Positions 10,088 to 28,617 of a DNA stretch of 64,000 bases are shown one piece after another; position 1 is the stretch's first letter; each line of letters opens with the position of its first letter. Both the position numbers and the translations under genes were made by a program. The notes under the pieces were generated by a model. That model did not search any database and was not told the DNA's origin. It saw only the letters and a program-made list of their open reading frames with translations. This DNA is from Eubacteriales bacterium (lineage in GTDB: Bacteria; Bacillota; Clostridia; Oscillospirales; CAG-272): assembly GCA_045543555.1 (NCBI GenBank), contig JAZQMQ010000020.1, forward strand, positions 2,911 to 66,910, given 5' to 3'.

Positions 10088-10096
10088 TATGAAGCA

Positions 10097-12564: not shown

Positions 12565-12754
12565 TTTGTTTCTCCGTTTCATTTTTTTGTTGTAAATTTA
12601 TTTTAATAACAAAGAAGAAGAAACAGAACAACACGATTTTCATAAAATGTTGATTTTAGAAAAAACTGTCGTCAAATTCTTATTTATCGTTCGGATTTAT
12701 CATAGCAAAAAAACTTTATGTACAGTGTTAATCACACACCCTATTGTAGCACAA

Positions 12755-12790
12755 AAACCGCAGAAAATCAATCTGCGGTTTCTGTTTTTT
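12755..12790. terminator. terminator after the aminotransferase gene (bidirectional hairpin)
   Basis: AAACCGCAGA-7 nt-TCTGCGGTTT with T-runs in both orientations. Confidence 0.75.
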
Positions 12791-12859
12791 CTGTCGGTAT
12801 AAAACTGTCCTTTAGGATACAGCCCTATCGTTTGCTCTTTTTTATTTACTATTTTGTTA

Positions 12860-14146
12860 TTAAGCCTCGCCAAGAAGCTTTTTTGCACTCTCGATCTTTA
12901 CGCATAGAGCGAAAAGTTTCGTTGCGATTTCGAGATCATTAATTGTGGGATAGGATGGTGCAATACGTATGTTTTTATCCTCAGGGTCGAGGCCGTAAGG
13001 ATAGGTCGCACCTGCACCTGTCATAATAACGCCCGCCTTCTTACAGCTTGCAACTATTGCCTTTGCGCAACCGGGAAGGCTATCAAATGATACAAAGTAG
13101 CCACCCTTAGGCTTGGTCCATTCACCGATTCCAAGTCCGCCAAGCTCATTTTCAAGTATTTCTAATACCTTTTCAAACTTGGGACGAAGAATGTCTGCAT
13201 GCTTCCTCATATGCTCATGCATTCCTTCTATACTCTTGAAGAACTTAACGTGACGGAGCTGATTGACTTTATCATGACCGATCGTCTGCATACCAAGTTG
13301 TCTGCGGATATCGTCGAGGTTGTTATGCGATGCTGCAATAGCTGCAATTCCAGAACCCGGGAAGGAGATCTTAGACGTTGATGCAAATTTGTATACCATA
13401 TCCGGGTTTCCTGCCTTACGACATTCATCGAGGATCTCAAGAATAACATCACAATCATCTTCATAAAGGTGATGAATGGTGTATGCATTATCCCAATATA
13501 TGCGGAAATCCTTTGCCTTAGGCTTCAAATGCGCAAAGCGACGAACCGTCTCGTCGGAATAAGAATATCCCTGTGGATTAGAGTACTTTGGAACACACCA
13601 AATACCCTTGATAGAATCATCTTCGGACACAAGCTTTTCAACAAGGTCCATTTCAGGTCCCGATTCGGTCATTGGAACGTTGATCATCTCAATACCGAAA
13701 TACTGTGTGATTGCAAAATGTCTGTCATATCCGGGAACAGGACAAAGGAACTTAACCTTGTCAAGCTTGCACCACGGAGTGCTGCCAAGTACACCGTGAG
13801 TCATTGAACGGGATACGGTATCATACATTACGTTGAGCGAGGAGTTACCGTAGATAATGATATTATCGTCAGGAACTTCCATCATGTCTCCAAGAAGCTT
13901 CTTTGCTTCGGCAATACCGTCAAGCACACCGTAGTTACGGCAGTCCGTTCCGTCCTCGCAGGTGAGATCGTCCTCAGAGCTTAAAATATCCATCATGCTC
14001 ATAGACAGATTGAGCTGATCAACTGAGGGCTTTCCTCTTGCCATATTGAGAGAAAGATCCATTGCCTTATACTCTCTGTATTGTGCCTTAAGGTCTTCGA
14101 GAAGTGCGATCAACTCTTCCCTTGTCATTTCGCTGTACTTTGCCAT
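12860..14146 (-). CDS. class I/II PLP-dependent aminotransferase
   Basis: Start taken at ATG 14146 (MAKYSEMTREEL...) with AAGGAG upstream. NMARGKPS motif and STSK PLP-lysine motif. Confidence 0.85.
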   Translation of the reverse strand: MAKYSEMTREELIALLEDLKAQYREYKAMDLSLNMARGKPSVDQLNLSMSMMDILSSEDDLTCEDGTDCRNYGVLDGIAEAKKLLGDMMEVPDDNIIIYGNSSLNVMYDTVSRSMTHGVLGSTPWCKLDKVKFLCPVPGYDRHFAITQYFGIEMINVPMTESGPEMDLVEKLVSEDDSIKGIWCVPKYSNPQGYSYSDETVRRFAHLKPKAKDFRIYWDNAYTIHHLYEDDCDVILEILDECRKAGNPDMVYKFASTSKISFPGSGIAAIAASHNNLDDIRRQLGMQTIGHDKVNQLRHVKFFKSIEGMHEHMRKHADILRPKFEKVLEILENELGGLGIGEWTKPKGGYFVSFDSLPGCAKAIVASCKKAGVIMTGAGATYPYGLDPEDKNIRIAPSYPTINDLEIATKLFALCVKIESAKKLLGEA

Positions 14147-14171
14147 TGTTTTCTCCTTATTTGCAGAGTCG

Positions 14172-14816
14172 TTAGTCCTCGTTTTGCTCACCGAGCATCT
14201 GGTTTAGGTGCTTAGACAAAAGCGCAAGAGAACACGCCATATTTTCATTTTGAACGAGGACTCCTTCGGGCACAGTAATGTGCGCGGGAGCAAAATTCCA
14301 TATTGCCTTAATGCCTGCTTCCACAAGCATATCGCATACCGCTTGAGCGGCGTGAGCAGGAGTTGTTATTATACCTATCTTCACGTTATTCTTTAAGCAG
14401 TAATTTGCGATATCGTCTGTGGAAAGTATCTCCTTGCCGTCCACACGGCACCTAACAAGCGCAGGGTTCATATCAAATCCCGCAACTATATTAAAGCCGT
14501 ATTCAGCGAAGCCACGATAAGACATAAGTGCTCTTCCAAGATTACCTGCACCCACGAGAATTGCGGGATTAACTGAATTATATCCAAGAAATTCCTTCAA
14601 TTCGCTTATTAAGGTCGCAACGTTATAACCGACCTTGGGTTTCCCGCCTGAACTGACAGCGGATAGGTCTTTTCGGACTTGAACGTCGTTTAAACCGAGC
14701 TTTTTCGCTATTTCGGTGGAGGATATGTTACCATCAGCATCAAGCGTCTTAAGAAAATTAAGATAATGAGGCAGGCGTTGCAGTGTATTAAGCGATACCT
14801 GTTGGCTTGATTCCAT
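14172..14816 (-). CDS. rex: redox-sensing transcriptional repressor Rex
   Basis: Start at ATG 14816 (MESSQQVSLNTLQRLPHYLNFL). The track start at 14840 is a TTG. Winged-helix N-terminus plus Rossmann GAGNLGRAL. Confidence 0.9.
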   Translation of the reverse strand: MESSQQVSLNTLQRLPHYLNFLKTLDADGNISSTEIAKKLGLNDVQVRKDLSAVSSGGKPKVGYNVATLISELKEFLGYNSVNPAILVGAGNLGRALMSYRGFAEYGFNIVAGFDMNPALVRCRVDGKEILSTDDIANYCLKNNVKIGIITTPAHAAQAVCDMLVEAGIKAIWNFAPAHITVPEGVLVQNENMACSLALLSKHLNQMLGEQNED

Positions 14817-14868
14817 TATTATTCTCCGTTCAATATGCAAGATTGCATTTATAATCCTGCATTTTCAT

Positions 14869-14897
14869 ATTATATACTAAAGATAACAATTTGTCAA
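14869..14897 (-). promoter_or_regulatory. sigma-A promoter of rex
   Basis: Minus strand: TTGACA (14897-14892), 17 nt, TATAAT (14874-14869). Confidence 0.6.
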
Positions 14898-14924
14898 TGG
14901 GGGCGCAATAAATTTCGCCCCCAT
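14897..14924 (-). terminator. GC-rich hairpin after the transporter gene (weak terminator in the relevant orientation)
   Basis: ATGGGGGCG-10 nt-CGCCCCCAT. The T-run is on the plus side only, so read-through into rex is plausible. Confidence 0.45.
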
Positions 14925-14936
14925 TTTTATATTATG

Positions 14937-16202
14937 TCAGAAAAGAATTATGATGAACTGCGTAACAAGTACAACGGCAACCAATGCTATCGGATAGGTA
15001 GCCGCGTAAGCCGCAGCAACGTCCTCTGTACCCGAAACACCGATAAGTGTACCAAGCGCAGGAGTACTCGTCATACCGCCTGTAAGCGATCCGAGGTTGT
15101 TAAGCAGGGAGAGCTTGAGAACGTATTTGGAAAACAAGAAGCCGACGATCATAGGAATGATAGTCATTATAATTCCGTAAACGAAGTACATCGGGTCAAA
15201 GTTTGCAATAAACTCAGCGCCACCAGGAATTCCCGCGCCAACGAGGAAGAACACAAGACCAAGCTCGCGGAAGAGCTTGAGTGTGGAATCCTTAGGCATA
15301 ATGCTTACCTTACCGATTCTGGTAATATGTCCGAGAATAAGGCTTACAAGCAGACATCCGCCTGTGGTGGTAAGCGAGAAGCAGGTACCGTCAAGACCCT
15401 TTGCGGAAAGGGGTATTTTGATCTGTCCAATGAACGTACCGAGTATTGCAGCAAGAGAAAATACAGCAATTCCCATGTGGTCAAGCTCAAAGAGCTTGCC
15501 TGCAAAGGTCTTCTTTTTGCCTTCCTCTTCCTTAACAACAAGCTTTGCTCTTTCAGCAGCCATATCAGCCTTAAGAACCTTAGGCATGAGCTGAACGAAA
15601 AGCACTACGCCGATAACGCCGAAAATGTAAGCAATTCCGTGTCCGACAGACACAAGTGACTGATATTCGGGAGCAACTGTTGCCTTTGCCGCGGAGAAAG
15701 CGGGAGTTGATGTGAGTGCTCCCGAAAGGAGACCTACGATCATTGCAACGAAGCCGTCCTGAGTTTTAATGGAGGAGCCGTATCCCATAACCTCGCCAAG
15801 GTAGATGCATCCAACTGCCGCAAGTCCGCCTGCAAGGATAACGATCGCACCGAGAAGAACGTAGGACTTGAAGTTACGCTTGAAATTTCCAAAGAATTTA
15901 GGCCCTGCGATAAAGCCTACCGAGGTTACAAAGAGGATAAGTCCGAGGCTTTCGATAATAGAAAGTCCTGCTTCAAAATTATATGGAGTTTTTGAAGCGA
16001 TAAAGTTAAGCCCGGTAACCTCGTTCATCTCAAAGCAGAGAGCTCCTGCCAAAAGTGCTACAACAAATACACCCGCATCGCCGAGGGAAATTCCCTTGAC
16101 AGTGATTCTTCCAAGTGCATAGCCTGCGAGAAGCACTGCAAACACAACCGAAAGCAGTGTTGAAATATTAGAAAGCGTTATAACGCCGCCGAATAATTCC
16201 AT
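14937..16202 (-). CDS. AAE-family (YidE/YbjL/AspT/SucE-type) transporter, short form without TrkA-C domains
   Basis: 421 aa. Internally duplicated halves with LSGALTSTPAFSAAK and LTGGMTSTPALGTLI. The N-terminus LLAGYALGRITVKGISLGDAG is typical of the family. Confidence 0.8.
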   Translation of the reverse strand: MELFGGVITLSNISTLLSVVFAVLLAGYALGRITVKGISLGDAGVFVVALLAGALCFEMNEVTGLNFIASKTPYNFEAGLSIIESLGLILFVTSVGFIAGPKFFGNFKRNFKSYVLLGAIVILAGGLAAVGCIYLGEVMGYGSSIKTQDGFVAMIVGLLSGALTSTPAFSAAKATVAPEYQSLVSVGHGIAYIFGVIGVVLFVQLMPKVLKADMAAERAKLVVKEEEGKKKTFAGKLFELDHMGIAVFSLAAILGTFIGQIKIPLSAKGLDGTCFSLTTTGGCLLVSLILGHITRIGKVSIMPKDSTLKLFRELGLVFFLVGAGIPGGAEFIANFDPMYFVYGIIMTIIPMIVGFLFSKYVLKLSLLNNLGSLTGGMTSTPALGTLIGVSGTEDVAAAYAATYPIALVAVVLVTQFIIILF

Positions 16203-16205
16203 TTT

Positions 16206-17819
16206 TTACACCTTCCTTGCATAGTCAGGAAGAAGTCTGGGGGATACCTCGTCGGTAACGATGCCCGCTTCTGCCATTTCCTTCTTAAAGCTGTTAACGT
16301 GAGAAAGGGTGAGCTTTTCAGGAGTTGCAGTCTCTGCCGCAACCTTTGCCGCATTTACGCCCGCGTTACGTCCGAATACGATGATGTCGAGGAGGGAGTT
16401 ACCCATAAGTCTGTTCTCACCGTGAATTCCTCCGACTGCCTCACCTGCAACGAAGAGGTTAGGCACCTCGGACATTCCGTTCTCGCTTATCTTGATACCG
16501 CCGTTCTGGTAGTGAAGTGTGGGGTAGATAAGAATGGGCTGCTTTCTCATATCAATGCCGTACTTGAGATACATACGCATCATTGCGGGGATTCTCTTCT
16601 CAATCGTTCCCTCGCCGTGAAGCATCTCGATCATGGGAGAGTCGAGCCATATTCCCTGTCCGCCGTTGAAGGTGTCAACGCCCTTACCCTTTCTGCACTC
16701 GCGAATAACACCAGATGCGCAAACGTCACGGGTCTCAAGGGAGTACATGAAGGGCTCACCGTCACAGTTTACGAGCTGTGCTCCGATGGAACGAACCTTC
16801 TCGGTTACGAGTGCGCCGAATATCTGCGAGGGATATGCTGCACCCGTGGGGTGATACTGAAGTGTGTAAGCATAAAGGAGAGGTGCGCCCGCACGATAAG
16901 CCATAACAAGACCGTCAGCGGTTGCTCCGTAGTGGTTGGAGGTGGGGAAGCCCTGATAGTGCATTCTGCCTGCGCCGCCCGTTGCGATGATAACGGTCTT
17001 TGCTCTTGCTATAAGGATCTCCTTGGTCTCCATATTCATAAGGACAGCACCTGCGGCATTGCCCTTTTCGTCCTTGATTATCTCGATAGCCGAGGTAAAA
17101 TCAACGACGTTGATGCCTCTGTTCTGAACCTCGTCACGAAGAACTCTCATGATCTCGGCACCGGAGTAGTCCTTACAAGCGTGCATTCTCTTTCTGGAAG
17201 TGCCGCCGCCGTGGGTTGTTACCATAGTACCGTCGGCTTCCTTGTCGAACATAACGCCGAGATCGTTGAGCCACTTAATACAAACGGGGGCATCGTTTAC
17301 GAGCTTATAAACAAGCTCGGGAACGTTCTTGAAGTGTCCGCCGCCCATAACGTCGAGATAGTGCTGTGCGGGGGAGTCATTGGGCTTATCAGCCGCCTGA
17401 ATTCCACCCTCTGCCATCATGGTATTAGCATCGCCGTGGCGAAGCTTGGTAACTATCATAACGTTTGCGCCGCTTTCCTGTGCCATAATTGCTGCAGCAG
17501 ATCCTGCTCCGCCGCCGCCTATAATCAGCACATCAACATCGTAATCGATCTTGTTAAGATCTATCTTATCGGGATCGATTCTGGGATTAGCCTGAAGGAT
17601 TCCTGCAAGCTCAAGGGGCACCTTTTCACCCTTGTTAGGACCTATTTTGAGAGTGTCGAACTGATCGACGATATGGTCGGGGTGGTTTTCAAGAAGGACC
17701 TGATCCTTTTCCTCAGCAGTCATTCTGCGAGGATGAATACCGTTAAGTGCGTTCTTGACACGCTCTTCACGTGTAGCTTCGACCTTTTTGATCGATTCAA
17801 GCATTTCATTCGTATACAT
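16206..17819 (-). CDS. FrdA/SdhA-family flavoprotein (soluble fumarate-reductase-like)
   Basis: 537 aa. FAD motif VLIIGGGGAGSAAA. Substrate-site motifs LQYHPTG, TEKVRS, ETRD, PTLHYQNGG and GIHGENRLMGNSLLD. ANTMMAEGG replaces SHTVAAEGG, so there is no covalent-FAD His. Confidence 0.8.
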   Translation of the reverse strand: MYTNEMLESIKKVEATREERVKNALNGIHPRRMTAEEKDQVLLENHPDHIVDQFDTLKIGPNKGEKVPLELAGILQANPRIDPDKIDLNKIDYDVDVLIIGGGGAGSAAAIMAQESGANVMIVTKLRHGDANTMMAEGGIQAADKPNDSPAQHYLDVMGGGHFKNVPELVYKLVNDAPVCIKWLNDLGVMFDKEADGTMVTTHGGGTSRKRMHACKDYSGAEIMRVLRDEVQNRGINVVDFTSAIEIIKDEKGNAAGAVLMNMETKEILIARAKTVIIATGGAGRMHYQGFPTSNHYGATADGLVMAYRAGAPLLYAYTLQYHPTGAAYPSQIFGALVTEKVRSIGAQLVNCDGEPFMYSLETRDVCASGVIRECRKGKGVDTFNGGQGIWLDSPMIEMLHGEGTIEKRIPAMMRMYLKYGIDMRKQPILIYPTLHYQNGGIKISENGMSEVPNLFVAGEAVGGIHGENRLMGNSLLDIIVFGRNAGVNAAKVAAETATPEKLTLSHVNSFKKEMAEAGIVTDEVSPRLLPDYARKV

Positions 17820-17833
17820 CTTACCCGTCCTCC

Positions 17834-18508
17834 TTATTTCTCAAAATCTCTGTTGTTATACATTTCCTTAAGCTCCTCAGCGGTCTTGCTCATAATATCG
17901 CGAAGAGCCTCCTCGGTTGCACCGTTTTCGATTTCAGCAACTCTCTCGAGGAGGTGCTGAGTTTCGGGAGCGAGATACTTACCGGTGAGACGGCGGGACA
18001 GAAGTCCTACCTGACCGTGAGTGATACCCGCAGGGCATCTGGAGGAGCAAACACCGCACATTACGCAGTCAAAGGACTCCTCTGCGCACTTTTCGTACTC
18101 GCCTCTCTGAGCGTAAGCAATGTACTGCATAACGTTAAGACCCTGAGTACAAGCCTTGGTGCAGGCGTTACAGCCTACGCAAGCGTAAATTTCGGGGTAA
18201 AGCTGCATCATTATCTGTTCGGTGGGCTTTACCTTCTCGATATCGTAGGGCTGCTTAATAAGGGGGAAGAAAGGAAGGGTCGCAATGTACATATTGTCTT
18301 CAACCTTTGTCTGACATGCAAGACATGTCTTCAGCTCTCGTTCACCCTTTATACGATAAATGGTCGCACAAGCACCGCAGAAGCCACAACGGCATCCTAC
18401 TCCGCGTACGAGCTGATAGCCCGCATACTCCATTGCTCCCATAATTGTAAGATTAGACGGCACCTCGTACTTTTTGCCGTAAAGATATATGTTTACCATA
18501 TTTTCCAT
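17834..18508 (-). CDS. FrdB/SdhB-like iron-sulfur protein
   Basis: 224 aa. N-terminal CRCGFCGAC...C (2Fe-2S-like), then CVGCNACTKAC and CVMCGVCSSRCP cluster motifs. Confidence 0.75.
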   Translation of the reverse strand: MENMVNIYLYGKKYEVPSNLTIMGAMEYAGYQLVRGVGCRCGFCGACATIYRIKGERELKTCLACQTKVEDNMYIATLPFFPLIKQPYDIEKVKPTEQIMMQLYPEIYACVGCNACTKACTQGLNVMQYIAYAQRGEYEKCAEESFDCVMCGVCSSRCPAGITHGQVGLLSRRLTGKYLAPETQHLLERVAEIENGATEEALRDIMSKTAEELKEMYNNRDFEK

Positions 18509-18522
18509 AGTATGTTACCTCA

Positions 18523-19347
18523 TCAATATTCATCAGGCAATGCGCCAAGCTTATCGTAACGGAATACCGGTCCGTCCTTGCAGACGTATTTGCTTCCAAT
18601 GTTACAGCGTCCACATTTACCGATACCGCACTTCATACGAAGCTCCATTGTAGTGTACACCTGCTCCTCAGTAAAGCCCAGCTCCTTCAGAGCCGCAAGC
18701 GTAAATTTGATCATAATGGGAGGACCGCAAACAAGTACGGTCTTGCTTATATCGGGCTCGAGCTCCTTTACGTAGTTGGGAACGAAGCCGACGTGTCCGT
18801 CCCAACCCTCCTGCTCACGGTCGATGGTAAGATGGACGTTAACGCCCGCCTCGGTCATCCACTCCTCAATTATTTCCTTGTAATCAACAAGGTCATCCTT
18901 GGAGCGTGAGCCGTAAACGATGTCTATGCTTCCGTAATTTTCTCTGTAGTGACGGCAGTAATTTATAACCGAGCGAAGAGGCGCAAGTCCGATTCCGCCC
19001 GCAATAAAGAGCAGGTCCTTGCCCTTGAGCTCCGTTTCAACGGGGAAGGAATTTCCGTAAGGGCCTCTGACGGTTACGTACTGACCTACCTCCATAGCGT
19101 GAAGCCACTCGGTAAGACATCCGCACTTCTTGATGCTGAATTCCATATACTCGGTATTCGTGGGAGATGAGGTTATGGAAAACATAGCCTCGCCCACACC
19201 GGGAATGGAAAGCATCGCACACTGACCGGGCATATGGTCAAAGGGCTTGACTCCGTCGGGAGTTACTACCCTGAAGGTCTTTACGTCGGGGGTATCGATA
19301 CGTATATCGGTTACTACTCCGACCACTGGGATAAGTGTTTCGTTCAT
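18523..19347 (-). CDS. flxA: FNR-like NAD(P)H:flavin oxidoreductase with C-terminal 2Fe-2S (FlxA / HydG / AsrB type)
   Basis: 274 aa. GGIGLAPL nucleotide-binding motif and CGIGKCGRC cluster motif. Confidence 0.75.
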   Translation of the reverse strand: MNETLIPVVGVVTDIRIDTPDVKTFRVVTPDGVKPFDHMPGQCAMLSIPGVGEAMFSITSSPTNTEYMEFSIKKCGCLTEWLHAMEVGQYVTVRGPYGNSFPVETELKGKDLLFIAGGIGLAPLRSVINYCRHYRENYGSIDIVYGSRSKDDLVDYKEIIEEWMTEAGVNVHLTIDREQEGWDGHVGFVPNYVKELEPDISKTVLVCGPPIMIKFTLAALKELGFTEEQVYTTMELRMKCGIGKCGRCNIGSKYVCKDGPVFRYDKLGALPDEY

Positions 19348-20372
19348 TACTTTTCCTCCTTAAAGGCCTTCATTACCTTGACGATATTCATGGAGATGGG
19401 GCACTTGCTCAGACATCTGCCGCAACCCACACAGCTGAAGATACCGTCGTTGTTTGCGGGATAGTAAACGAGCTTGTGCATAAATCTCTGCCTGAATCTT
19501 TCAAGCTGAGATACACGGGGATTTCCGTGCGCCATTTTGGTGAAATCGGAATACATGCAGGAATCCCAGCATCTGAATCTCTTGATGCCGCTTCCCGTGT
19601 CGAAATCCTTTATGTCATAGCACTGGCAGGTGGGACAAACGAATGTACAGGTACCGCAACCGATACAAGACTCCGAAAGACCTGCCCATTTGTCGGAATC
19701 AAAGTACTCCATCATCTTTTCGGGAGTAAAGCCGTCGGTGGTAAGGGACGCAAGCGGAAGCTCAGCCTTTGCGCTGTATATCCCGGTCTTGATGTCCCAT
19801 ACGGGCTCGTCATCGGATTCGGTAAGAGAGGTCCCGATGCTCTCGATGAGAGCCTTTCCCTTCTCTGTTACCGCCTCAAGATAAACCTCGTCTCCGTTTA
19901 CCCAAGCGGAAACGTCGCCCTCAGGCTCTGCACAGTTGATGCCGAAGGTCTGACAGAAGCAGGTCTCCCGCATCATATCGGGGTTACAAGCGACTGCAAT
20001 GGTGGTGCAATGCTCACGTCTGCTCTTGTAATAGGTATCGACGGGCTCGGACAAAAATACTCTGTCGAGAATTTCGAAGGACTTGACGTCGCAGGCACGG
20101 AGTCCGAATACCGTAAAATCCTCGGTCTCGCTTCTTACGTCGATAATTTCGATCTTCTTGCCCTCACGCTTGAAATCAACAAGATTTTCGGTCTGGGGGA
20201 AGAAGAAATCCTTAGGAGTTCTGACCTTGTCGCATTTTTCGTTTGCGTCAGCCTTCCACTCCTTGAAGGGCTTATGGGTGTCGCTTACGTCGGCACCGTC
20301 GGGATCGGGCACATAGAGACGCTGAAGCGAAGCGATAGCGGAGAAAAGCTCGTTTAAAGTTGTTTTAAGCAT
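19347..20372 (-). CDS. flxB: 4Fe-4S dicluster protein (FlxB / HydB / AsrA type)
   Basis: Start taken at ATG 20372 (MLKTTLNELF), preceded by GAGGAGG. CIGCGTCTFVCPTCQC and CVGCGRCLSKCP motifs. TAATG overlap with flxA. Confidence 0.7.
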   Translation of the reverse strand: MLKTTLNELFSAIASLQRLYVPDPDGADVSDTHKPFKEWKADANEKCDKVRTPKDFFFPQTENLVDFKREGKKIEIIDVRSETEDFTVFGLRACDVKSFEILDRVFLSEPVDTYYKSRREHCTTIAVACNPDMMRETCFCQTFGINCAEPEGDVSAWVNGDEVYLEAVTEKGKALIESIGTSLTESDDEPVWDIKTGIYSAKAELPLASLTTDGFTPEKMMEYFDSDKWAGLSESCIGCGTCTFVCPTCQCYDIKDFDTGSGIKRFRCWDSCMYSDFTKMAHGNPRVSQLERFRQRFMHKLVYYPANNDGIFSCVGCGRCLSKCPISMNIVKVMKAFKEEK

Positions 20373-21354
20373 TTTCCTTTCCTCCTCTTTCGTGAACGAT
20401 ACTCGGCTCGGCGTCGCCGTAGGTGTAGTTGGTAAGGGGAGAACGGCTCTCCATATCCTCACCCGCCTGATACTCGCCGTAAAGCTCGTTTATATCCTTG
20501 ATAAACTTACGGTTGAGCAGGTGAAGGGGAATGTGCTGAGGACATACTCTGCTGCACTCACCGCAGTCGGTACAGCGTCCCGCTACGTGGAACGCTCTTA
20601 TGATATGGAACATATTTTCCTCAAAGGAGGTAGCCGCCGCCTTCTGTGCCACACCCGATGCATCGTTGTCGAATACACATTTTTCGCAGGTGCAGGCGGG
20701 ACAAGCGTTACGGCAGGCGTTACATCTGATGCAACGGGAAAGCTCACCTCTCCAGAATTCGTATCTTTCCTCGGGAGTCATATTTTCGAGGGCGGCAACC
20801 TGATCAAAGCGGTCACAGTCGTCCACCTTATCTCCCTCCTCGCAGAGAAGCTCGTCGCATATGGGATGCTTCTTGCTCTTGCAGGATGCACATTTTTCAA
20901 GAAGTGCCTCGTAAATGGGAAGCTCCCTTGCAGTATCACCAAGACCGTAAACGGTAAGCACACCGTCACGCTCGGTAACGTTTTTAATGGTCGCAACGCC
21001 GCTCTTGGCTCTGACGGCATCAATATCCGCCTTGCCGAAGCACTCGATACCGATAGCGTATACGTTTTCTCTTATAATTCTGTGCTCCTTGAGAAGCTGT
21101 GCGAAGCTGTAGCTGTCGCAGGGCTTGAGGAATACCAGCACCTTTCCTTCTTTTCTGCTCTCTTTTACGAGATACTTGGAAAGGTTTGCTCCGCAGAAAG
21201 CGGAATAGACGAAATCCGCCTCAATTTCCTCCTTGGTCTCAAACACCGCGGGGGTAATATCGTAAACAAAATCGCCCTTTTTCCAACCGAGCACACGGCT
21301 TACCGCACCGCTTGAAAGAAGCTCGATCGCCTTATTTTTCATCATTTCTTGCAT
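20365..21354 (-). CDS. flxC: iron-sulfur protein (FlxC-type)
   Basis: 329 aa. CIRCNACRNACPACTC and CTDCGECSRVCP motifs. Overlaps both neighbours. Confidence 0.65.
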   Translation of the reverse strand: MQEMMKNKAIELLSSGAVSRVLGWKKGDFVYDITPAVFETKEEIEADFVYSAFCGANLSKYLVKESRKEGKVLVFLKPCDSYSFAQLLKEHRIIRENVYAIGIECFGKADIDAVRAKSGVATIKNVTERDGVLTVYGLGDTARELPIYEALLEKCASCKSKKHPICDELLCEEGDKVDDCDRFDQVAALENMTPEERYEFWRGELSRCIRCNACRNACPACTCEKCVFDNDASGVAQKAAATSFEENMFHIIRAFHVAGRCTDCGECSRVCPQHIPLHLLNRKFIKDINELYGEYQAGEDMESRSPLTNYTYGDAEPSIVHERGGKENA

Positions 21355-21779
21355 CGGAGGTCCTCCAATCTGCGATTCTCACCGAGGTCGGTGACTGTCT
21401 TTACGAAGCTGTTCATGGTTTCCGCAAACTTCTGACCCTCAGCGGCAGATACCCATTCAACTCTCGTTCTGTCTCTTTCGATACCGAGGTAGTCGAGCAT
21501 CGAGAACAGAAGGGTCATACGGCGCCTTGCATAGTAGTTACCCGTAGTATAGTGACAGTCGCCGGGGTGACAACCGCAAATTATAACGCCGTCCGCACCT
21601 CTCTGGAAGGCACGGAGGATGAACATGGGATTTACTCTGCATGAACAGGGCACTCTGATTATCTTAACGTCGGCAGGATACTGAAGACGGTTGGTTCCCG
21701 CAAGGTCAGCGCCCGCGTAAGAGCACCAGTTACAGCAGAAGGCTACTATTTTGGGCTTGAATTCATTATTTACTTGCAT
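21342..21779 (-). CDS. flxD: MvhD-family (methyl-viologen-reducing hydrogenase delta subunit-like) protein, FlxD
   Basis: 145 aa. KIVAFCCNWCSY...VPCSCRV...GVIICGCHPGDCHY is the MvhD signature. Confidence 0.85.
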   Translation of the reverse strand: MQVNNEFKPKIVAFCCNWCSYAGADLAGTNRLQYPADVKIIRVPCSCRVNPMFILRAFQRGADGVIICGCHPGDCHYTTGNYYARRRMTLLFSMLDYLGIERDRTRVEWVSAAEGQKFAETMNSFVKTVTDLGENRRLEDLRCKK

Positions 21780-23761
21780 ATTGCGTCAACCTCCGCCATT
21801 ATCTGTGCATTTGTGAAGCCCTTAAGGTCCATAGCGCCCGAAGGACAAGCAACGGTACAAGCACCGCAGCCCTGACATACCGCTTCGTTAACAGAAGCAA
21901 CTCTGCGAATGAGGGTGGTACGGTTGGGACCTCTGAATTCCTTATCGGAATAGGTGATTGCGCCGTAAGGACATACCTTTTCACAGGAGGAGCATCCGTT
22001 ACAGAGCATCTCGTCGGAATGAGCAACACAGGGGTTGCAGGTAAGCTTATTCTTATTAAGAAGACCGATAACCTTTGCCGCACAAGCGGAGGCCTGAGAA
22101 ACGGTCTCGGGAATATCCTTGGGGCCCTGACATACGCCCGAGAGGAAGATGCCCGCCGTAGGGCTCTCAACGGGACGGAGCTTGGGGTGTGCCTCGGTGA
22201 AGAAATCGTTTGTATCCATACTTGCGGTAAGCTTGGTAGCAAGAGGTCTTGCGGAGCTATCGGGCTCGATAGCGGTTGCGAGAACAACCATATCCGCGCT
22301 TATCTTCAGCTGCTTGCCCTCGATAAGATCGGATGCACGTACCGTGAGAGTACCGTCGGGCTCCGGAAGAACCTTTCCGACCATTCCTTTAACGTAATGA
22401 ACACCGTATTCCTCAACCGCACGGCGATAGAACTCGTCAAAATTCTTACCGGGCGTACGAACGTCGATATAGAACACGTACACCTCGGTGTCGGGATATT
22501 TTTCCCTTATGAGCATAGCGTGCTTTGCGGTGTACATACAGCATATCTTGGAGCAATAGCTCTTGCCCTTGTCGTCGGAGCATCTTGAGCCCACGCACTG
22601 TACGAACACGATGGTGTGCGGGTGGGTCTTATCGGAGGGACGGAGAAGCGTTCCGCCGTTAGGGCCTGCGGCGTTCATAAGACGCTCAAGCTCAAGGGAG
22701 GTAACTACGTCCTTGCTCTGATTGTATGCAAACTCATCGTACTTGTCGAGCTTGATGGGATTGAAGCCGGTTGCAACGACGATGGCACCGTACTGCTCGT
22801 TTATATAGCTGTCTGTCTGCTTGTAATCGATAGCGCCAACCGTACAAACCTTTGCGCAAAGGCCGCACTTACCGCTTTTCAGCATAGTGCAATAATCTGC
22901 ATCGATGGTTGCAACCTTCGGTACTGCCTGAGCGAAGGGTATATATACTGCGCGACGGTTATCAAGACCGAGATTGAAGGCATTCGGAACCTTCTTCTGA
23001 GGACATTTTTCTGTACAAAGACCGCAGCCCGTACACTTATTTTCGTCAACGTATCTCGCCTTGCGCTTGATGGTAACGTTGAAATTACCGACGAAGCCCT
23101 TTACGTCCTCGACCTCGGAATAGGAAAGAATCCTTATCTTTTCATGTTGAGCACAATCGACCATTTTAGGCGTAAGGATACAAGCGGCACAGTCGAGGGT
23201 CGGGAATGTCTTGTCTATCTGCGCCATCTTTCCTCCGATGGTCGCCTCCTTCTCGACTATGTCGACCTCAAAGCCCGCATCGGCAATATCAAGTGCGGTC
23301 TGGATTCCCGCAATACCGCCTCCGATAACGAGGGCACGCTTGACAACGGGGCTCTCGCCTGCGGTGAGGGGTGCGTTAAGATGTACCTTTGCTATAGCTG
23401 CACGTCCGAGGATAATTGCCTTTTCGGTCGCCTCCTCGACGTTCTTATGTATCCACGATACCTGCTCTCTGATGTTTGCTATCTCGACCATATAGGGATT
23501 AAGTCCCGCCGCCGTCGCAGTTTTGCGGAAGGTGGCCTCGTGCATACGGGGTGAGCAGGAGCATACAACCACTCCCGTAAGAGCGTTATCCTTTATTGCG
23601 TCCTTAATGAGATTCTGTCCTGCCTCAGAGCACATATACTGATATTCGGTGGAGATAACTACACCGGGCTCGTGCGAAAGAGCCTCCGCTACCGCCTTAA
23701 CGTCCACGGTCGCAGCAATATTCGTACCGCAATGGCAGACAAATACTCCAATTCTCTGCAT
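21770..23761 (-). CDS. hdrA: heterodisulfide reductase subunit A-like flavoprotein
   Basis: 663 aa. N-terminus MQRIGVFVCHCGTNIA, FAD motif ALVIGGGIAGIQTALDIA, several 4Fe-4S motifs (CTGCGLCTEKCP, CNGCSSCEKVCP, CQGCGACTVACP). Confidence 0.9.
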   Translation of the reverse strand: MQRIGVFVCHCGTNIAATVDVKAVAEALSHEPGVVISTEYQYMCSEAGQNLIKDAIKDNALTGVVVCSCSPRMHEATFRKTATAAGLNPYMVEIANIREQVSWIHKNVEEATEKAIILGRAAIAKVHLNAPLTAGESPVVKRALVIGGGIAGIQTALDIADAGFEVDIVEKEATIGGKMAQIDKTFPTLDCAACILTPKMVDCAQHEKIRILSYSEVEDVKGFVGNFNVTIKRKARYVDENKCTGCGLCTEKCPQKKVPNAFNLGLDNRRAVYIPFAQAVPKVATIDADYCTMLKSGKCGLCAKVCTVGAIDYKQTDSYINEQYGAIVVATGFNPIKLDKYDEFAYNQSKDVVTSLELERLMNAAGPNGGTLLRPSDKTHPHTIVFVQCVGSRCSDDKGKSYCSKICCMYTAKHAMLIREKYPDTEVYVFYIDVRTPGKNFDEFYRRAVEEYGVHYVKGMVGKVLPEPDGTLTVRASDLIEGKQLKISADMVVLATAIEPDSSARPLATKLTASMDTNDFFTEAHPKLRPVESPTAGIFLSGVCQGPKDIPETVSQASACAAKVIGLLNKNKLTCNPCVAHSDEMLCNGCSSCEKVCPYGAITYSDKEFRGPNRTTLIRRVASVNEAVCQGCGACTVACPSGAMDLKGFTNAQIMAEVDAICK

Positions 23762-23781
23762 TTTTCTTGTCCTTTCGGGAA

Positions 23782-24159
23782 TTATTTTGTATATTTACGG
23801 AAAGCCGTTACGATAGCCTGCTGAGGCATATCGGGATCGAGAAGCTCGGGGATATCGTCAGGGGTAAGACGGTTACATCCCTGAGGACGGATGGCCATAA
23901 GCCTTACCGCCTCGATAAGCTTTGCGGGCTCGACACCTCTGGGGCATCGCTCTACACAAGCAAAGCAGGTGAGACATTTGTATACCGATTCCGAGTTCAG
24001 CAGGGCGTCAATATCGCCGTTTTCGACCATATATACGAACTGATGGGGATGATACTCCATCTCGCCGTAGGAGGGGCAGGTGCCGGAGCACTTACCGCAT
24101 TTCATACATTTTCTCGGGTTTACACCGCTTACTCGGATTATTTCTTCCTTCTTGTTCAT
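23782..24159 (-). CDS. hdrC: heterodisulfide reductase subunit C-like 4Fe-4S protein
   Basis: 125 aa. CMKCGKCSGTCP and CLTCFACVERCP. Confidence 0.8.
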   Translation of the reverse strand: MNKKEEIIRVSGVNPRKCMKCGKCSGTCPSYGEMEYHPHQFVYMVENGDIDALLNSESVYKCLTCFACVERCPRGVEPAKLIEAVRLMAIRPQGCNRLTPDDIPELLDPDMPQQAIVTAFRKYTK

Positions 24160-24950
24160 TTGGCGACATCCTCCTTAACTCCGAGAGCCTCCGCAAGAAG
24201 CTCGGTGAAGTACTTTATCTCCGCTCCGCCATCTCTGCACTGCTCGAGATTGTAAAGGCAGAGGGGACAAGCGGTGATAACAAGGTCTGCACCGAAGCCA
24301 TTTGCGCTGTTAAGCACGTCGGCGCTCTTTGAGAGTGCGGATGCCTTATCCTCTAGGGCAACGTAGCCACCGCAGCACTCGTTACGGTAGGGGTAGATAA
24401 CGGGCTCACCGCCGATGGCACGGATAAGGTCCTCAATTATCTTGGGGTCCTCAACATCGTCCATCGCCATGACCTTTCCGGGACGGAGAAGGAGACAGCC
24501 GTAGTATGCGGCGATCTTCTTGCCCGTAAAGGGGTTTACCACCTTTTCCTTAATCTTATCAAAGCCCACTCTGTCACGGAGAAGCTCAAGGAAATGAATA
24601 ACCTGAGTCTTACCCTCGTACTCACCCTCGGGCTTTTCATACATACGGACCTTCAGCTTGAAGTTTTCATCGTTCAAAAGATCGTTTCTCACTCTCTTCA
24701 GCACGTTGTGACAGGCGGAGCAAAGGGTCACAAGGTCTTCACCTCTCTTTTCCGCCGCATAAAGTGCTCTCACGGAGGAAAGCTTGTTTGCTATCTCGTT
24801 ACTTGCGGCATTATACGTACCTCCGCAGCACTGCCAGGTGTCAAGCTCGTTCAAGCCTACACCGAGGACCTCTGCTACGGCTCTTGCATATCTGTCAAGC
24901 TCCTTAGCCTTGGTCTTTAAGGTACAGCCGGGATAATAACTGTAAGTCAT
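24156..24950 (-). CDS. hdrB: heterodisulfide reductase subunit B-like protein (two CCG domains)
   Basis: 264 aa. YYPGC...WQCCGG...CSAC and YYGC...NECCGG...CPLC. Confidence 0.85.
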   Translation of the reverse strand: MTYSYYPGCTLKTKAKELDRYARAVAEVLGVGLNELDTWQCCGGTYNAASNEIANKLSSVRALYAAEKRGEDLVTLCSACHNVLKRVRNDLLNDENFKLKVRMYEKPEGEYEGKTQVIHFLELLRDRVGFDKIKEKVVNPFTGKKIAAYYGCLLLRPGKVMAMDDVEDPKIIEDLIRAIGGEPVIYPYRNECCGGYVALEDKASALSKSADVLNSANGFGADLVITACPLCLYNLEQCRDGGAEIKYFTELLAEALGVKEDVAK

Positions 24951-24968
24951 AACTTCATCCTTTCAGGT

Positions 24969-26345
24969 TTATACCATCTGCTCGGGGTGGAAGACCTCGT
25001 CGAAGCGCTCCTCGGTCAAAAATCCGAGAGCAACGCAGGCCTCTTTAAGCGAAATATTGTCCTTATACGCCTTCTTTGCGGTCTTTGCCGCATTTTCGTA
25101 GCCGATGTAGGGGTTAAGGGCGGTCACGAGCATAAGGGAATTCTTGAGATTGTGATCCATCTTCTCACGGTTTGCCTTAATGCCCACCGCACAGTTATTG
25201 TTGAAGGAAACTATGCTGTCCGCAAGGAGACGTACCGACTGAAGGAAATTATAAATACATACGGGCATGAACACGTTAAGCTCAAAGTTGCCCTGAGAAG
25301 CCGCCATGCCGACCGCAACGTCGTTACCCATTACCTGAACCGCAACCATCGTAACCGCCTCGCACTGAGTGGGGTTTACCTTACCGGGCATAATGGAGGA
25401 GCCGGGCTCGTTTTCGGGAATGAATATCTCACCGAGGCCGTCACGGGGACCCGAAGCAAGCCATCTTACGTCGTTTGCGATCTTCATCATATCGCAGGCA
25501 AGAGCCTTAAGTGCTCCGTGTGCAAAAACAAGCTCGTCCTTGGAGGTGAGAGCGTGAAATTTATTGCCTGCGGTAACGAAAGCCTTACCGGTTATCTCGG
25601 ATACCGCCTCTGCGACCGCAGTATCGAAGCCCTTGGGAGCGTTAAGACCCGTACCGACGGCAGTGCCGCCGAGAGCAAGCTCGTGAAGGGGCTTGAGGGA
25701 CATAGCTATAAGCTCTCTGTCTCTTTCAAGCGAGCTTCTCCAACCGCTGATCTCCTGAGAGAACTTTATGGGGGTTGCATCCTGAAGATGAGTACGTCCG
25801 CACTTTACGGCGTCCTCGTTTTCGCTTTCAAGACGCTTGAAGGTGTCGATAAGCAGGTCAACTGCGGGAAGAAGCTTATCCTCTATTCCGATCACCGCCG
25901 CAATGTGCATTGCGGTGGGGAAGGTATCGTTTGATGACTGAGACATATTGATGTCGTCGTTGGGGTGGAGAAGCTTTTTGCCCGCAAGCTCGTTGCCTCT
26001 GTTGGCGATGACCTCGTTTGCGTTCATGTTGGACTGAGTGCCGCTTCCCGTCTGCCATACGACGAGGGGGAAATGATCGTTTAACTGACCCGAAATGACC
26101 TCGTCACATGCTGAGCAGATAGCACGAAGCTTTTCCTCGGTCATCTTCTCGGGGCGAAGGGTGGAGTTTGCCATTGCCGCCGCCTTTTTGAGAACACCGA
26201 AGGCGTGAGTGATCTCACGGGGCATTATCTCGTTGCCTACGCCTATGCGGAAGTTTTCTGAGCTTCTCTGTGTCTGAGCCGCCCAATATTTATCTGCGGG
26301 GACTTTTACCTCGCCCATCGAATCGTGTTCAATACGAAATTCCAT
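24969..26345 (-). CDS. fumC: class II fumarate hydratase
   Basis: 458 aa. GSSIMPGKVNPTQCEA signature. Confidence 0.95.
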   Translation of the reverse strand: MEFRIEHDSMGEVKVPADKYWAAQTQRSSENFRIGVGNEIMPREITHAFGVLKKAAAMANSTLRPEKMTEEKLRAICSACDEVISGQLNDHFPLVVWQTGSGTQSNMNANEVIANRGNELAGKKLLHPNDDINMSQSSNDTFPTAMHIAAVIGIEDKLLPAVDLLIDTFKRLESENEDAVKCGRTHLQDATPIKFSQEISGWRSSLERDRELIAMSLKPLHELALGGTAVGTGLNAPKGFDTAVAEAVSEITGKAFVTAGNKFHALTSKDELVFAHGALKALACDMMKIANDVRWLASGPRDGLGEIFIPENEPGSSIMPGKVNPTQCEAVTMVAVQVMGNDVAVGMAASQGNFELNVFMPVCIYNFLQSVRLLADSIVSFNNNCAVGIKANREKMDHNLKNSLMLVTALNPYIGYENAAKTAKKAYKDNISLKEACVALGFLTEERFDEVFHPEQMV

Positions 26346-26357: not shown

Positions 26358-27302
26358 TCATATGTTGAGCTGATTTATTACTTCTTTGAGCTTGTCTGCG
26401 CTGTAACGGAGCTTCGCGATCTCCTCTTCCGTCAAGGGAGAGATGATCTTTCCGTTTACTCCGCCCTTTCCAACAATGGAAAGAATGCTGAGACAAACGT
26501 CGCTGATGCCGTATTCACCGTTCATCATAGTGGACACCGAAAGTGCAGTATCGATGCCTCTGAAGATGCTGGAGCAAATATTGTTAACCGTGAGAGCTAT
26601 AGCGTAGTAGGTAGCTCCCTTTGCGGTGATAATTGTTGAACCGGACTTTCTTACGTACTCCTCGATCTCATCGCGGTTAAAGCCGCAACCGTCGATCTGA
26701 AGGCCCTTGGACTGAGCGTAAGCGTCGATAGGTGTGCCCGATATGGTTGCGATAGACCACGGCACGAAGGAAGTATCACCGTGCTCACCGAAAACGTTTG
26801 CATGAACGTTCTGCATACTAATGCTGAAGTTTTCAGCAAGACGAGAACGAAGACGTGCTGTATCAAGGAGCGCACCACTTCCGATTATCTGCTTTTCGGG
26901 AAGACCCGAGCACTTACAGAAAACATACGTAAGTATATCAACGGGGTTACTTACGACGATATACACCGCGTTGGGAGCAACACTCGTTATTTTCGGAATG
27001 ATGCTCTTGGTGATGTTGACGTTTGTCTGTGCAAGGTCAAGCCGGGACTGTCCCGGACGTCTTGCGATACCGGAGGTAAGCACCACGATATCAGAATCTC
27101 TTGCATCCTCGTAGTCACCTGCGTGAATGTTGATGGGCGAAATAAACGGCGCGCCCTGTCTGATATCCATTGCTTCACCAAACGCCTTCTGCTCGTTGAT
27201 ATCGATAAGAACCACCTCTGCAGCATTACCGCTGACCGCAAGAGTAAACGCGATAGTCGCACCTACAGATCCGGCTCCTATGATAGACACTTTTCTTCCC
27301 AT
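26358..27302 (-). CDS. mdh: LDH-family 2-hydroxyacid dehydrogenase with Arg at the Q102 position (predicted malate dehydrogenase)
   Basis: 314 aa. VSIIGAGSVGAT. The specificity loop GIARRPGQSRLDL aligns as RRPGQSR against LDH QKPGETR and MDH RKPGMSR. Catalytic GEHGDT. Confidence 0.8.
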   Translation of the reverse strand: MGRKVSIIGAGSVGATIAFTLAVSGNAAEVVLIDINEQKAFGEAMDIRQGAPFISPINIHAGDYEDARDSDIVVLTSGIARRPGQSRLDLAQTNVNITKSIIPKITSVAPNAVYIVVSNPVDILTYVFCKCSGLPEKQIIGSGALLDTARLRSRLAENFSISMQNVHANVFGEHGDTSFVPWSIATISGTPIDAYAQSKGLQIDGCGFNRDEIEEYVRKSGSTIITAKGATYYAIALTVNNICSSIFRGIDTALSVSTMMNGEYGISDVCLSILSIVGKGGVNGKIISPLTEEEIAKLRYSADKLKEVINQLNI

Positions 27303-27365: not shown

Positions 27366-27394
27366 ATTATATCACCTATATATTGTTTTTGCAA
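27366..27394 (-). promoter_or_regulatory. sigma-A promoter of the mdh-fumC-hdr-flx-frd operon
   Basis: Minus strand: TTGCAA (27394-27389), 17 nt, TGaTATAAT (-10 at 27371-27366). Confidence 0.6.
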
Positions 27395-27403
27395 ATGCAA
27401 AAA
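27386..27403. promoter_or_regulatory. 18-nt perfect palindrome overlapping the -35 (operator candidate)
   Basis: TTTTTGCA-AA-TGCAAAAA. Confidence 0.45.
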
Positions 27404-27658: not shown

Positions 27659-28594
27659 TTAAACAACGCCGAAGGCAACCTTGTTCTTAGTCTCATACAG
27701 CTTATCAATAAAGCGTCTGTCGAGCTCACTGAGCCTTGTTCCCTCCCTGCAAACCATAACGTCCTTATACTTATGTGCCGGAGCATTGCAGGATCTCTGT
27801 ATAAGCCCGTATCGTCTGAGTATGCTTTCGGGAGTCGGAGAAACCCACATAAAAGATGAAGGCATCATAGAAAGCAGCAGGAATGCGTCGGTGCCCTTAT
27901 AGAGATTTATAACCTTTTTGTCCGAGAGTGCAAGGGATACGTTTTCGCTCTGCACAACGTTTATATACGGCACGTTACAGTCGCCGTGAGTGACCTCAAC
28001 ATAGGAAGCAAAATCCGAAAGACTGAGCTTTTCCTTGCTTGCAAGCGGATGCTCCTTTGACATGAGCGCGAGGGATTCGAATTCCCATATCGGTTCGCAC
28101 TTAAGCCCCTTATCTCTGCAAAAATCGGCAAAATAGGTTTCATACTGCACCTGATAACGAATAACTCCGATATTGAATATTCCGTCGGAAACCATATTTA
28201 CCCCGTCAATTGAGGTTGTTTCTCCGAGATTCACATCGATTGGCTTATCGTTGTCAAGAGAGGATATAAATTCCATAGCCGCAACCGAAGCATAGCTTCC
28301 CCTTGGTACACATACGTTAAAGAACTGCATATCCGGATCATTTTCGCGACATATAGACTGCATTTGCTCTATTTGTGAGAGGATATTCTTTGCATAACGC
28401 AGAAATTCTTGTCCCTTATCTGTAGGAACAACTCCGCGCGAGGTTCTCTTGAATATTACTATACCAAGCGTGTCCTCAAGCTCCTTAATTGATTTGCTCA
28501 AGTTTGGCTGACCCATGAAAAGGTTCTCCGCAGCCTGTGTTATAGACCCTGTTTTTTCAACCTCGAGAGCATATTTGAAATGCTGTGTGTTCAT
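27659..28594 (-). CDS. LysR-family transcriptional regulator
   Basis: Start at ATG 28594 (MNTQHFKYALEVEKTGSITQAAENLFMGQPNLSKSIKELE) with GGAG 6 nt upstream. The track start is a TTG. Confidence 0.85.
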   Translation of the reverse strand: MNTQHFKYALEVEKTGSITQAAENLFMGQPNLSKSIKELEDTLGIVIFKRTSRGVVPTDKGQEFLRYAKNILSQIEQMQSICRENDPDMQFFNVCVPRGSYASVAAMEFISSLDNDKPIDVNLGETTSIDGVNMVSDGIFNIGVIRYQVQYETYFADFCRDKGLKCEPIWEFESLALMSKEHPLASKEKLSLSDFASYVEVTHGDCNVPYINVVQSENVSLALSDKKVINLYKGTDAFLLLSMMPSSFMWVSPTPESILRRYGLIQRSCNAPAHKYKDVMVCREGTRLSELDRRFIDKLYETKNKVAFGVV

Positions 28595-28617
28595 TTTGTT
28601 CTCCAATCGTTTTCCGT

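Follow-up and report, generated by a model that had tools for sequence, protein, structure and literature searches.

A widespread operon of gut Clostridia predicted to couple Flx-Hdr electron bifurcation to fumarate reduction

The 'succinate operon' of Pseudoclostridium thermosuccinogenes (CDQ83_RS03365-03315) encodes a fumarate hydratase, an Flx-Hdr complex, a fumarate reductase and a putative succinate transporter (PMC7282089). Succinate formation was proposed in that study to be coupled to ferredoxin reduction, and the operon was approximately 4-fold up-regulated at low CO2; a preprint (Koendjbiharie & van Kranenburg, 2019, doi 10.20944/preprints201912.0288.v1) is cited there for the succinate operon. 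FlxABCD-HdrABC of Desulfovibrio vulgaris, as cited in PMC7282089 and PMC6315080, has been tied to ethanol metabolism, with a DsrC-type disulfide as the assumed acceptor (Ramos et al., 2015). In the tubeworm symbiont Ca. Endoriftia and in Thioflavicoccus mobilis, tfrAB is interspersed with flxABCD-hdrABC, and the complex was suggested to feed fumarate reductase directly (PMC6315080). According to PMC11636981, electrons may pass either directly or by way of reduced ferredoxin and a DsrC-like protein; a 2026 survey repeats this and describes AB-only fumarate reductases of unknown partner as common (PMC13147460). The same survey cites a soluble, irreversible five-subunit NADH-dependent fumarate reductase of Hydrogenobacter thermophilus whose genes are scattered (Miura et al., 2008). 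Here, we describe an Flx-Hdr-fumarate reductase operon in a 64,000-nucleotide (nt) stretch of contig JAZQMQ010000020.1 from an Eubacteriales bacterium (hereafter the window, in whose numbering positions are given). The idea behind our reading is already in print, as are the operon and the choice between direct transfer and a thiol or DsrC-like carrier (PMC7282089, PMC6315080, PMC11636981). What we add is to show how widely and how strictly the synteny holds, and to give evidence for FrdBA as a portable module.

The FrdB-like (17834-18508) and HdrB (24156-24950) genes of the window belong to the same tight operon, which comprises 12 genes, all on the minus strand; no gap between them exceeds 20 nt, and five gene pairs overlap. 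In order of transcription these are mdh-like, fumC, hdrB, hdrC, hdrA, flxD (mvhD), flxC, flxB, flxA, frdB, frdA and an AspT-type transporter gene. A complete FlxABCD-HdrABC module of seven contiguous genes (18523-24950), all with the expected domains, is positioned between the genes for the fumarate-making enzymes and those for the fumarate-reducing enzyme. The interval 16206-24950 spans frdA to hdrB and constitutes the redox core; fumC and the mdh-like gene (upstream) and the transporter gene (downstream) lie outside it, and it is these outer genes that define the pathway. Neither a membrane-anchor gene nor a thiol-carrier gene or second CCG protein was found within the operon by inspection of its open reading frames (ORFs) and Pfam matches. 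Gene content, cofactor motifs, catalytic residues and strict synteny could all be observed directly. On balance, we favor, with moderate confidence, the view that the FrdAB pair is wired to Flx-Hdr as a bifurcating NADH:fumarate/ferredoxin system with direct electron transfer from HdrBC to FrdB. The operon is genuine, highly conserved and found in many species, and it is a predicted system.

The FrdB-like protein (224 amino acids (aa), one [2Fe-2S] and two [4Fe-4S] motifs) contains GCRCGFCGAC, CVGCNACTKAC and CVMCGVCSSRCP in its translation. No CCG domain was detected in it, the Pfam matches being to Fer2_4 and Fer4 families only. The separate HdrB (264 aa) carries the motifs WQCCGG...CSAC and NECCGG...CPLC and matches PF02754 twice (E 2.6e-20). 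An earlier note on this DNA had reported this pairing of a CCG-less FrdB-type protein with a two-CCG HdrB in one operon; all of the motifs it quoted were found in the translations, and Pfam agrees. In a 27-sequence alignment of relatives 29-62% identical, 12 Cys residues of the FrdB-like protein were invariant: C39/C44/C47/C65, with the SdhB-like spacing C-x4-C-x2-C-x17-C, and C110/C113/C116/C120 and C148/C151/C154/C158, which form two C-x2-C-x2-C-x3-C motifs. The third motif is a full CxxCxxCxxxCP of the [4Fe-4S] type, whereas the classical complex II Fe-S subunit has [3Fe-4S]. Given that these 12 residues are invariant and that the ten CCG Cys of HdrB are kept in its orthologues (see below), the motifs of both proteins are under selection and not due to chance.

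By profile comparison, the FrdB-like protein matched the N-terminal part of TfrB best among NCBIfam families (38.4 bits, positions 18-149 of 488; NF004898 cut-off 385) and scored 29 bits against TIGR00384, for which the cut-off is 88. Its family profile is co-linear with E. coli FrdB (1kf6_B), positions 15-123 aligning to 26-160 (E 1.2e-9). The AlphaFold model of the protein had a mean confidence (pLDDT) of 89.5, and a fold search with this model returned weak domain-level matches only. The family is large, with 6322 matches in 90% clusters and 721 clusters at 50% identity. Of the best 150 of these 721, nearly all are 210-250 aa long or fragments, and none is of TfrB length.

The FrdA-like flavoprotein (16206-17819; PF00890, 225.9 bits) is the predicted fumarate-reducing subunit. 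Its best NCBIfam family is TfrA (NF004900, 339.1 bits, cut-off 718), followed by SdhA/FrdA (275 bits) and NadB (268 bits), all scores being below the respective cut-offs. The match covers positions 6-414 of the 546 of the TfrA profile, the C-terminal ~130 positions being absent. The catalytic residues align with those of SdhA/FrdA and are invariant or nearly so; by alignment, these are the His-Pro-Thr motif (H323-P-T), the proton-donor Arg (R364-D) and the substrate-binding His and Arg (H436 and R470). The covalent 8-alpha-FAD His is replaced by N132 in the FrdA-like protein, invariantly across the family, which, on what is established for this type of enzyme, fits a one-way fumarate reductase. 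Residues 1-93 form a conserved N-terminal extension (RMTAEEK...HPD...GPNKGEKVP) that is kept in relatives approximately 52-54% identical. A single-sequence AlphaFold model of the FrdA-like protein was unusable (pLDDT 35.8). Separately, a 752-aa FrdA in a related locus (L036, 10690-12945) was rejected as an assembly artefact, in which an N-run is followed by a duplicated segment.

The ligand Cys residues of HdrB are C9, C41, C42, C77, C80, C152, C192, C193, C228 and C231. All ten were kept in 63 of 63 orthologues at a mean protein identity of 61.5%, as opposed to one of 63 for the non-ligand C238. Over its full length, HdrB matched the methanogen HdrB structures 9sfi_C and 5odc_B (E 1e-31 to 3e-29). 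HdrC (23782-24159; TIGR03290, 67.8 bits) is predicted to hold two [4Fe-4S] clusters, and its eight Cys residues were kept in 64 of 64 orthologues. HdrA is the bifurcating subunit in methanogen Hdr. The HdrA of the window (21770-23761; NCBIfam HdrA2, 797.7 bits), an FAD and multi-[4Fe-4S] subunit, aligned over residues 3-661 to HdrA of solved methanogen Hdr complexes (8rvu_a and 5odc_A) with E values of about 1e-203 (5odc_A, 1.2e-202). FlxD/MvhD (21342-21779; PF02662 FlpD, 189.7 bits), a [2Fe-2S] adaptor predicted to feed electrons to HdrA, matched the C-terminal MvhD part of HdrA2 (positions 644-774), such that HdrA and MvhD together cover the fused HdrA2 profile. HdrA with all of its ferredoxin-like domains, and MvhD, are maintained at 72-93% identity.

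The three remaining Flx subunits resemble proteins of other complexes. FlxC (20365-21354) is an Fe-S protein related to FdhB, the beta subunit of F420-dependent formate dehydrogenase; it matched Pfam Fer4_8 and the FdhB chains of solved Fdh-Hdr complexes (7bkb_E, E 1.2e-26; 8rvu_E). FlxB (19347-20381), whose start was taken as the ATG of MLKTT and whose orthologue in metagenome locus L001 has 341 aa, is an Fe-S protein like sulfhydrogenase beta or AsrA (PF17179 Fer4_22, 104.8 bits; ShyB, 163 bits; 9nez_B, E 2.2e-35). FlxA (18523-19347) is an FAD/NAD(P)H-binding subunit with a C-terminal [2Fe-2S] motif and the predicted site of NADH entry (PF00175, PF00970 and PF10418; sulfhydrogenase gamma 9nez_C, E 6.5e-57). 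Pyrococcus sulfhydrogenase I supplies the nearest counterparts of FlxA and FlxB, namely its gamma and beta subunits, which constitute its NAD(P)H module. No Flx-Hdr structure was present among the Protein Data Bank matches of FlxA, FlxB and FlxC.

A scan of one genome per species with a 7-sequence FrdB-like alignment identified at least 554 genomes with a relative, of which the best 80 loci were examined. These best 80 genomes were all of gut or rumen Clostridia, i.e., Acutalibacteraceae, Oscillospiraceae, Christensenellaceae and Yeguia hominis (L033). Closest among the genomes listed was a metagenome-assembled genome (MAG) from roe-deer rectum, with an FrdB 95% identical to that of the window. 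The order (mdh)-fumC-hdrB-hdrC-hdrA-flxD-flxC-flxB-flxA-frdB-frdA-(transporter)-(rex) was found in every long-enough contig of the best 80. The mdh-like gene precedes fumC in most related loci, fumC adjoins hdrB in 58, the transporter gene follows frdA in 42 and Rex is beside the operon in 16. Metagenome locus L001 displays the same gene order with different flanks. At 62% FrdB identity, locus L091, from a very abundant lineage, retains hdrBCA-flxDCBA-frdBA and lacks fumC, mdh and the transporter gene. In all of the related loci examined, hdrB is accompanied by hdrC, hdrA and flxDCBA. Two loci that carry the operon (L061 and L063) are labelled as Treponema and Spirochaetales MAGs; their FrdB proteins are 77-78% identical to Clostridia copies, which points to binning contamination or recent transfer.

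More distant relatives place FrdBA in other company. The Aquificota member Desulfurobacterium atlanticum encodes a full-length FrdB of the family (P0189, 37% identity) adjoining a 531-aa FrdA, and in this species and two other bacteria FrdBA has no Hdr neighbours. A natural FrdB-FrdA fusion of 727 aa (P0175) occurs in locus L084 (5250-7433), with no Flx or Hdr genes within 5 kb upstream. In metagenome locus L086, a 46%-identical FrdB-like gene directly follows a 2-oxoacid:ferredoxin oxidoreductase gamma gene. In bacterium BFN5, FrdBA lies amid citrate-lyase genes and is followed by a 327-aa Fe-S and cytochrome b protein. Since FrdBA is found alone, fused, or beside an Fe-S/cytochrome b protein without Hdr, it is a portable catalytic cassette, supplied with electrons by one Fe-S partner or another, and not a detached half of TfrB. 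Two side observations concern these loci. The BFN5 locus (L089, CP053389, approximately 2600-15770) contains an inverted duplication of citD-frdB-frdA-(Fe-S and cytochrome b)-citE-citF around a LysR-type gene, and it resembles a cluster for converting citrate to succinate, in which FrdBA of this same family would have a membrane-type electron donor. On a short contig (L085), a partial FrdB-like gene (28-264) lies directly upstream of the FrdB-like gene P0200 (363-1034), and the two appear to be tandem paralogues.

Under the mechanism that we propose, the region would form the central part of a 12-gene 'succinate operon' in a gut Oscillospirales (Acutalibacteraceae-like) bacterium, whose products would convert oxaloacetate via malate and fumarate to succinate and export it. 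Fumarate would be reduced by a soluble pair of FrdA and FrdB, which would hold non-covalent FAD together with one [2Fe-2S] and two [4Fe-4S] clusters and be wired to FlxABCD-HdrABC. NADH would be oxidized at FlxA, and the electrons would pass through FlxB, FlxC and FlxD (MvhD) to the HdrA flavin, at which HdrA would bifurcate them. One electron would go uphill to ferredoxin, and the other downhill through HdrC and HdrB to FrdB, by direct protein-protein contact, and then via the FAD of FrdA to fumarate. The net reaction would be 2 NADH + fumarate + oxidized ferredoxin -> 2 NAD+ + succinate + reduced ferredoxin. We infer in this scheme the physical complex, the direction of electron flow, the bifurcation and the lack of a thiol intermediate. 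The relevant potentials are about +30 mV for fumarate/succinate, -320 mV for NAD+/NADH and about -400 to -500 mV for ferredoxin; on these textbook values, the energy released in the downhill branch suffices to drive the uphill one. The predicted bifurcation from NADH to fumarate and ferredoxin, which is the central function proposed here, was absent from the earlier note.

Direct transfer is favored over a thiol shuttle because FrdB lacks a thiol-oxidizing domain, because a single CCG protein and no carrier gene are encoded in the operon, and because FrdB has Fe-S/cytochrome partners elsewhere. Of the two routes that the earlier note had left standing, direct transfer is also the more economical. 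The pairing of genes in BFN5, where FrdBA is next to an Fe-S/cytochrome b protein, shows that FrdB accepts electrons from Fe-S partners. More tentatively, the noncubane [4Fe-4S] clusters of HdrB may serve purely for relay and docking toward FrdB, with no disulfide involved; the twelve-gene soluble supercomplex would then be the first electron-bifurcating fumarate reductase, and its reduced ferredoxin would go to Rnf or a hydrogenase. Either a relay or a catalytic role would fit the conservation of the HdrB ligands, which leaves a shuttle as a minority option.

Such a shuttle is the first rival to be weighed: HdrB would reduce a small disulfide or the disulfide of a DsrC-like protein, and the resulting thiol would feed FrdAB as coenzyme M (CoM-SH) and coenzyme B (CoB-SH) feed methanogen TfrAB. 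The strict conservation of all ten CCG ligands is what a catalytic disulfide-reducing site would display, TfrAB is the nearest curated family of FrdAB, and a thiol or DsrC is the acceptor assumed in work on Flx-Hdr (PMC7282089, PMC11636981). However, the FrdB-like protein has neither a CCG domain nor any other recognizable thiol-oxidizing site, the single CCG protein of the operon comes without a carrier gene, no carrier gene was seen beside the operon in the related loci examined, and FrdBA has, by gene neighbourhood in BFN5, a non-thiol partner elsewhere. The gut Clostridia host is not expected to make CoM-SH or CoB-SH. We consider a shuttle distinctly unlikely. The other serious rival, which we regard as unlikely, is a non-bifurcating NADH:fumarate reductase like that of Hydrogenobacter thermophilus, in which Flx and Hdr are a mere Fe-S wire and no ferredoxin is reduced. 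A soluble multi-subunit NADH-dependent enzyme does exist in Hydrogenobacter, its A and B subunits are noted in the survey cited above to match well in other Aquificota (PMC13147460), and the Aquificota FrdB of Desulfurobacterium atlanticum belongs to the family of the window protein. A full HdrA and MvhD maintained at 72-93% identity would, however, be costly for a mere wire, and passing electrons from NADH to fumarate alone would waste ~350 mV.

The reading put forward in the earlier note, that the FrdB-like protein and HdrB are a split version of TfrB, would make them the halves of a three-protein TfrAB-like enzyme independent of HdrA and Flx, whether a TfrB had been split or TfrB arose by their fusion. 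The TfrB architecture that it described, an FrdB-type Fe-S domain fused to an HdrB-type CCG domain, holds, in that the TfrB profile is covered piecewise by the FrdB-like protein (18-149), HdrC (132-218) and HdrB (395-468). Among curated families, FrdA likewise matches TfrA best and the FrdB-like protein the N-terminal part of TfrB, so this much of the comparison stands. It fails at HdrB, which is not a detached TfrB half: judged by NCBIfam profile scores, which are not a tree, it reached 137-147 bits against HdrB and SdhE profiles, its best match being the SdhE profile of methylmenaquinol:fumarate reductase (MFR; NF042965, 147.5 bits, cut-off 500), as compared with 37 bits against TfrB. Its constant partners are normal HdrC, HdrA, MvhD and FlxABC. 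No support was obtained for a splitting event either, since FrdB proteins of this family are as a rule short and CCG-less and are often found without any Hdr. A split TfrB is thus very unlikely, and FlxABCD-HdrABC plus FrdAB is the better description of the locus. Finally, FrdAB might act on a substrate other than fumarate, as an aspartate oxidase-like enzyme or another enoate reductase, with the linkage to fumC incidental. The NadB profiles score close to SdhA/FrdA (268 versus 275 bits) and the family falls below every curated cut-off, but fumC, the MDH-like gene and a C4-type transporter flank FrdAB in dozens of species, the Fe-S partner subunit is typical of Frd/Sdh and not of NadB, all of the catalytic residues are present, and relatives sit within reductive tricarboxylic acid (rTCA) and citrate-lyase clusters. 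We consider this highly improbable.

Several points weigh against the bifurcating FrdAB-Flx-Hdr system that we prefer. A full-text literature search revealed no report that such a complex, or an orthologue, had been purified or assayed. To our knowledge, bacterial Flx-Hdr bifurcation itself has not been demonstrated in vitro. FrdBA occurs in several lineages without neighbouring Flx-Hdr genes, so that its dependence on Hdr is not a given. If HdrB retains disulfide chemistry, its noncubane ligands would likewise be expected to be strictly conserved. In addition, the Endoriftia tfrAB genes reportedly depart from the expression pattern of the rest of their cluster (PMC11636981).

The genes on either side of the redox core are those of a predicted succinate pathway. 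The first gene of the operon (26358-27302) encodes an NAD-dependent dehydrogenase of the lactate/malate dehydrogenase (LDH/MDH) family, probably an LDH-like malate dehydrogenase that converts oxaloacetate to malate. It scored 346.6 bits against NCBIfam L-LDH (cut-off 339) and 275.5 bits against malate dehydrogenase; by hand alignment, an Arg occupies the substrate-discriminating Gln102 position of LDH (GIARRPGQSR), which suggests an LDH-like malate dehydrogenase that would be misnamed by automatic annotation. The next gene (24969-26345) encodes the class II fumarate hydratase FumC, which converts malate to fumarate (TIGR00979, 719 bits, cut-off 665). At the other end, beginning 3 nt past frdA, is the gene for an AspT/YidE/YbjL-family transporter (14937-16202; PF06826 twice, 170 bits), a predicted exporter of succinate or C4-dicarboxylates.

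Upstream of the first gene, a 356-nt intergenic region contains a promoter-like site (27366-27395, minus strand; TTGCAA, a 17-nt spacer, TATAAT and a TG extension) that matches the consensus at 10 of 12 positions plus TG in a consensus scan, and is a consensus match only. A LysR-family gene (27659-28606; NCBIfam LysR-type matches), a possible regulator, lies beyond it and is upstream of the operon in only six related loci. On the other side and outside the operon is the gene for Rex, the NADH/NAD+-sensing repressor (14172-14840, minus strand; NF003994, 280 bits), which has its own promoter at 14897-14869, a perfect sigma-70 consensus match. Searching for the Rex operator TTGTGAAN6TTCACAA with up to three mismatches revealed none near the operon, the hits being no more than expected by chance. 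Directly after Rex, with a 20-nt overlap, is a gene for a type Ic aspartate aminotransferase (12860-14191, minus strand; 661 bits), which could supply oxaloacetate from aspartate to the succinate branch under NADH-responsive control.

The GC content is 0.50-0.52 over the redox genes (16001-26000) and 0.41-0.46 in most of the flanking sequence, a difference that could reflect gene-specific composition or past transfer. Several long antisense ORFs (e.g., 16299-17960, plus strand) are mechanical by-products of the composition of the redox genes. Plasmid megablast returned no match, and no tRNA genes were found in the window. Farther away, ORF sizes and N-terminal sequences only were used to recognize two ordinary housekeeping clusters, a DnaJ, DnaK, GrpE and HrcA-like heat-shock operon (33386-39143, minus strand) and UvrB-UvrA (45320-50140, plus strand).

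If the proposed system is correct, fumarate would join heterodisulfide and crotonyl-CoA as a high-potential acceptor driving flavin-based electron bifurcation, and HdrB would have a role without thiol chemistry. This could explain how quinone-independent gut and rumen Clostridia gain energy while producing succinate, which matters to the host and in propionate cross-feeding. The hypothesis is testable in the cultured carriers Yeguia hominis (NSJ-40) and P. thermosuccinogenes, the latter having a CRISPRi tool (PMC9044749).

Among the known systems, that of P. thermosuccinogenes, which was not one of the best 80 loci and is compared here by its published description, shares with the window a fumarase gene, the seven Flx-Hdr genes, two fumarate reductase genes and one transporter gene in the same order. 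Both organisms are Clostridia, and in both fumarate reduction is predicted to be coupled to ferredoxin reduction. The window differs in that it comes from a mesophilic gut/rumen lineage, and has an extra LDH/MDH-family gene in front and Rex and aspartate aminotransferase genes behind. The D. vulgaris complex shares all seven subunits, i.e., the NAD(P)H/FAD subunit, two Fe-S subunits, MvhD, HdrA, HdrB and HdrC, whereas the operon of the window has FrdAB, fumarase and the transporter and lacks a DsrC-like gene. The Endoriftia and Thioflavicoccus clusters likewise combine an FrdAB-type enzyme with Flx-Hdr under the same bifurcation hypothesis; these belong to gammaproteobacterial autotrophic rTCA metabolism, with korABCD, acl, pnt and rnf as neighbours, in contrast to the fermentative succinate formation predicted for the window.

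With respect to the fumarate reductase itself, methanogen TfrAB resembles the FrdAB of the window in being soluble, in its one [2Fe-2S] and two [4Fe-4S] motifs and in working in the direction of fumarate reduction. TfrB, however, has two CCG domains of its own and oxidizes CoM-SH and CoB-SH, whereas the 224-aa FrdB-like protein has none. The FrdA of the window differs from TfrA by its ~93-aa N-terminal extension and its lack of the C-terminal ~130 positions, and both subunits score far below the TfrA and TfrB cut-offs (339 versus 718 and 38 versus 385). Type E succinate:quinone reductase and Campylobacter MFR (SdhABE) also place a CCG protein alongside an SdhAB-type pair; their SdhE is a membrane-associated subunit on the quinone side, whereas the CCG protein of the window belongs to a soluble HdrABC with no quinone-related subunit. 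The Hydrogenobacter enzyme is similarly soluble, NADH-driven and built on an A/B pair, the role of NADH in the window being predicted, but it has additional C, D and E subunits, and it is not known to bifurcate. Lastly, FrdAB of the window differs from classical complex II in having no covalent-FAD His, no [3Fe-4S] motif and no anchor gene, the catalytic residues being common to both.

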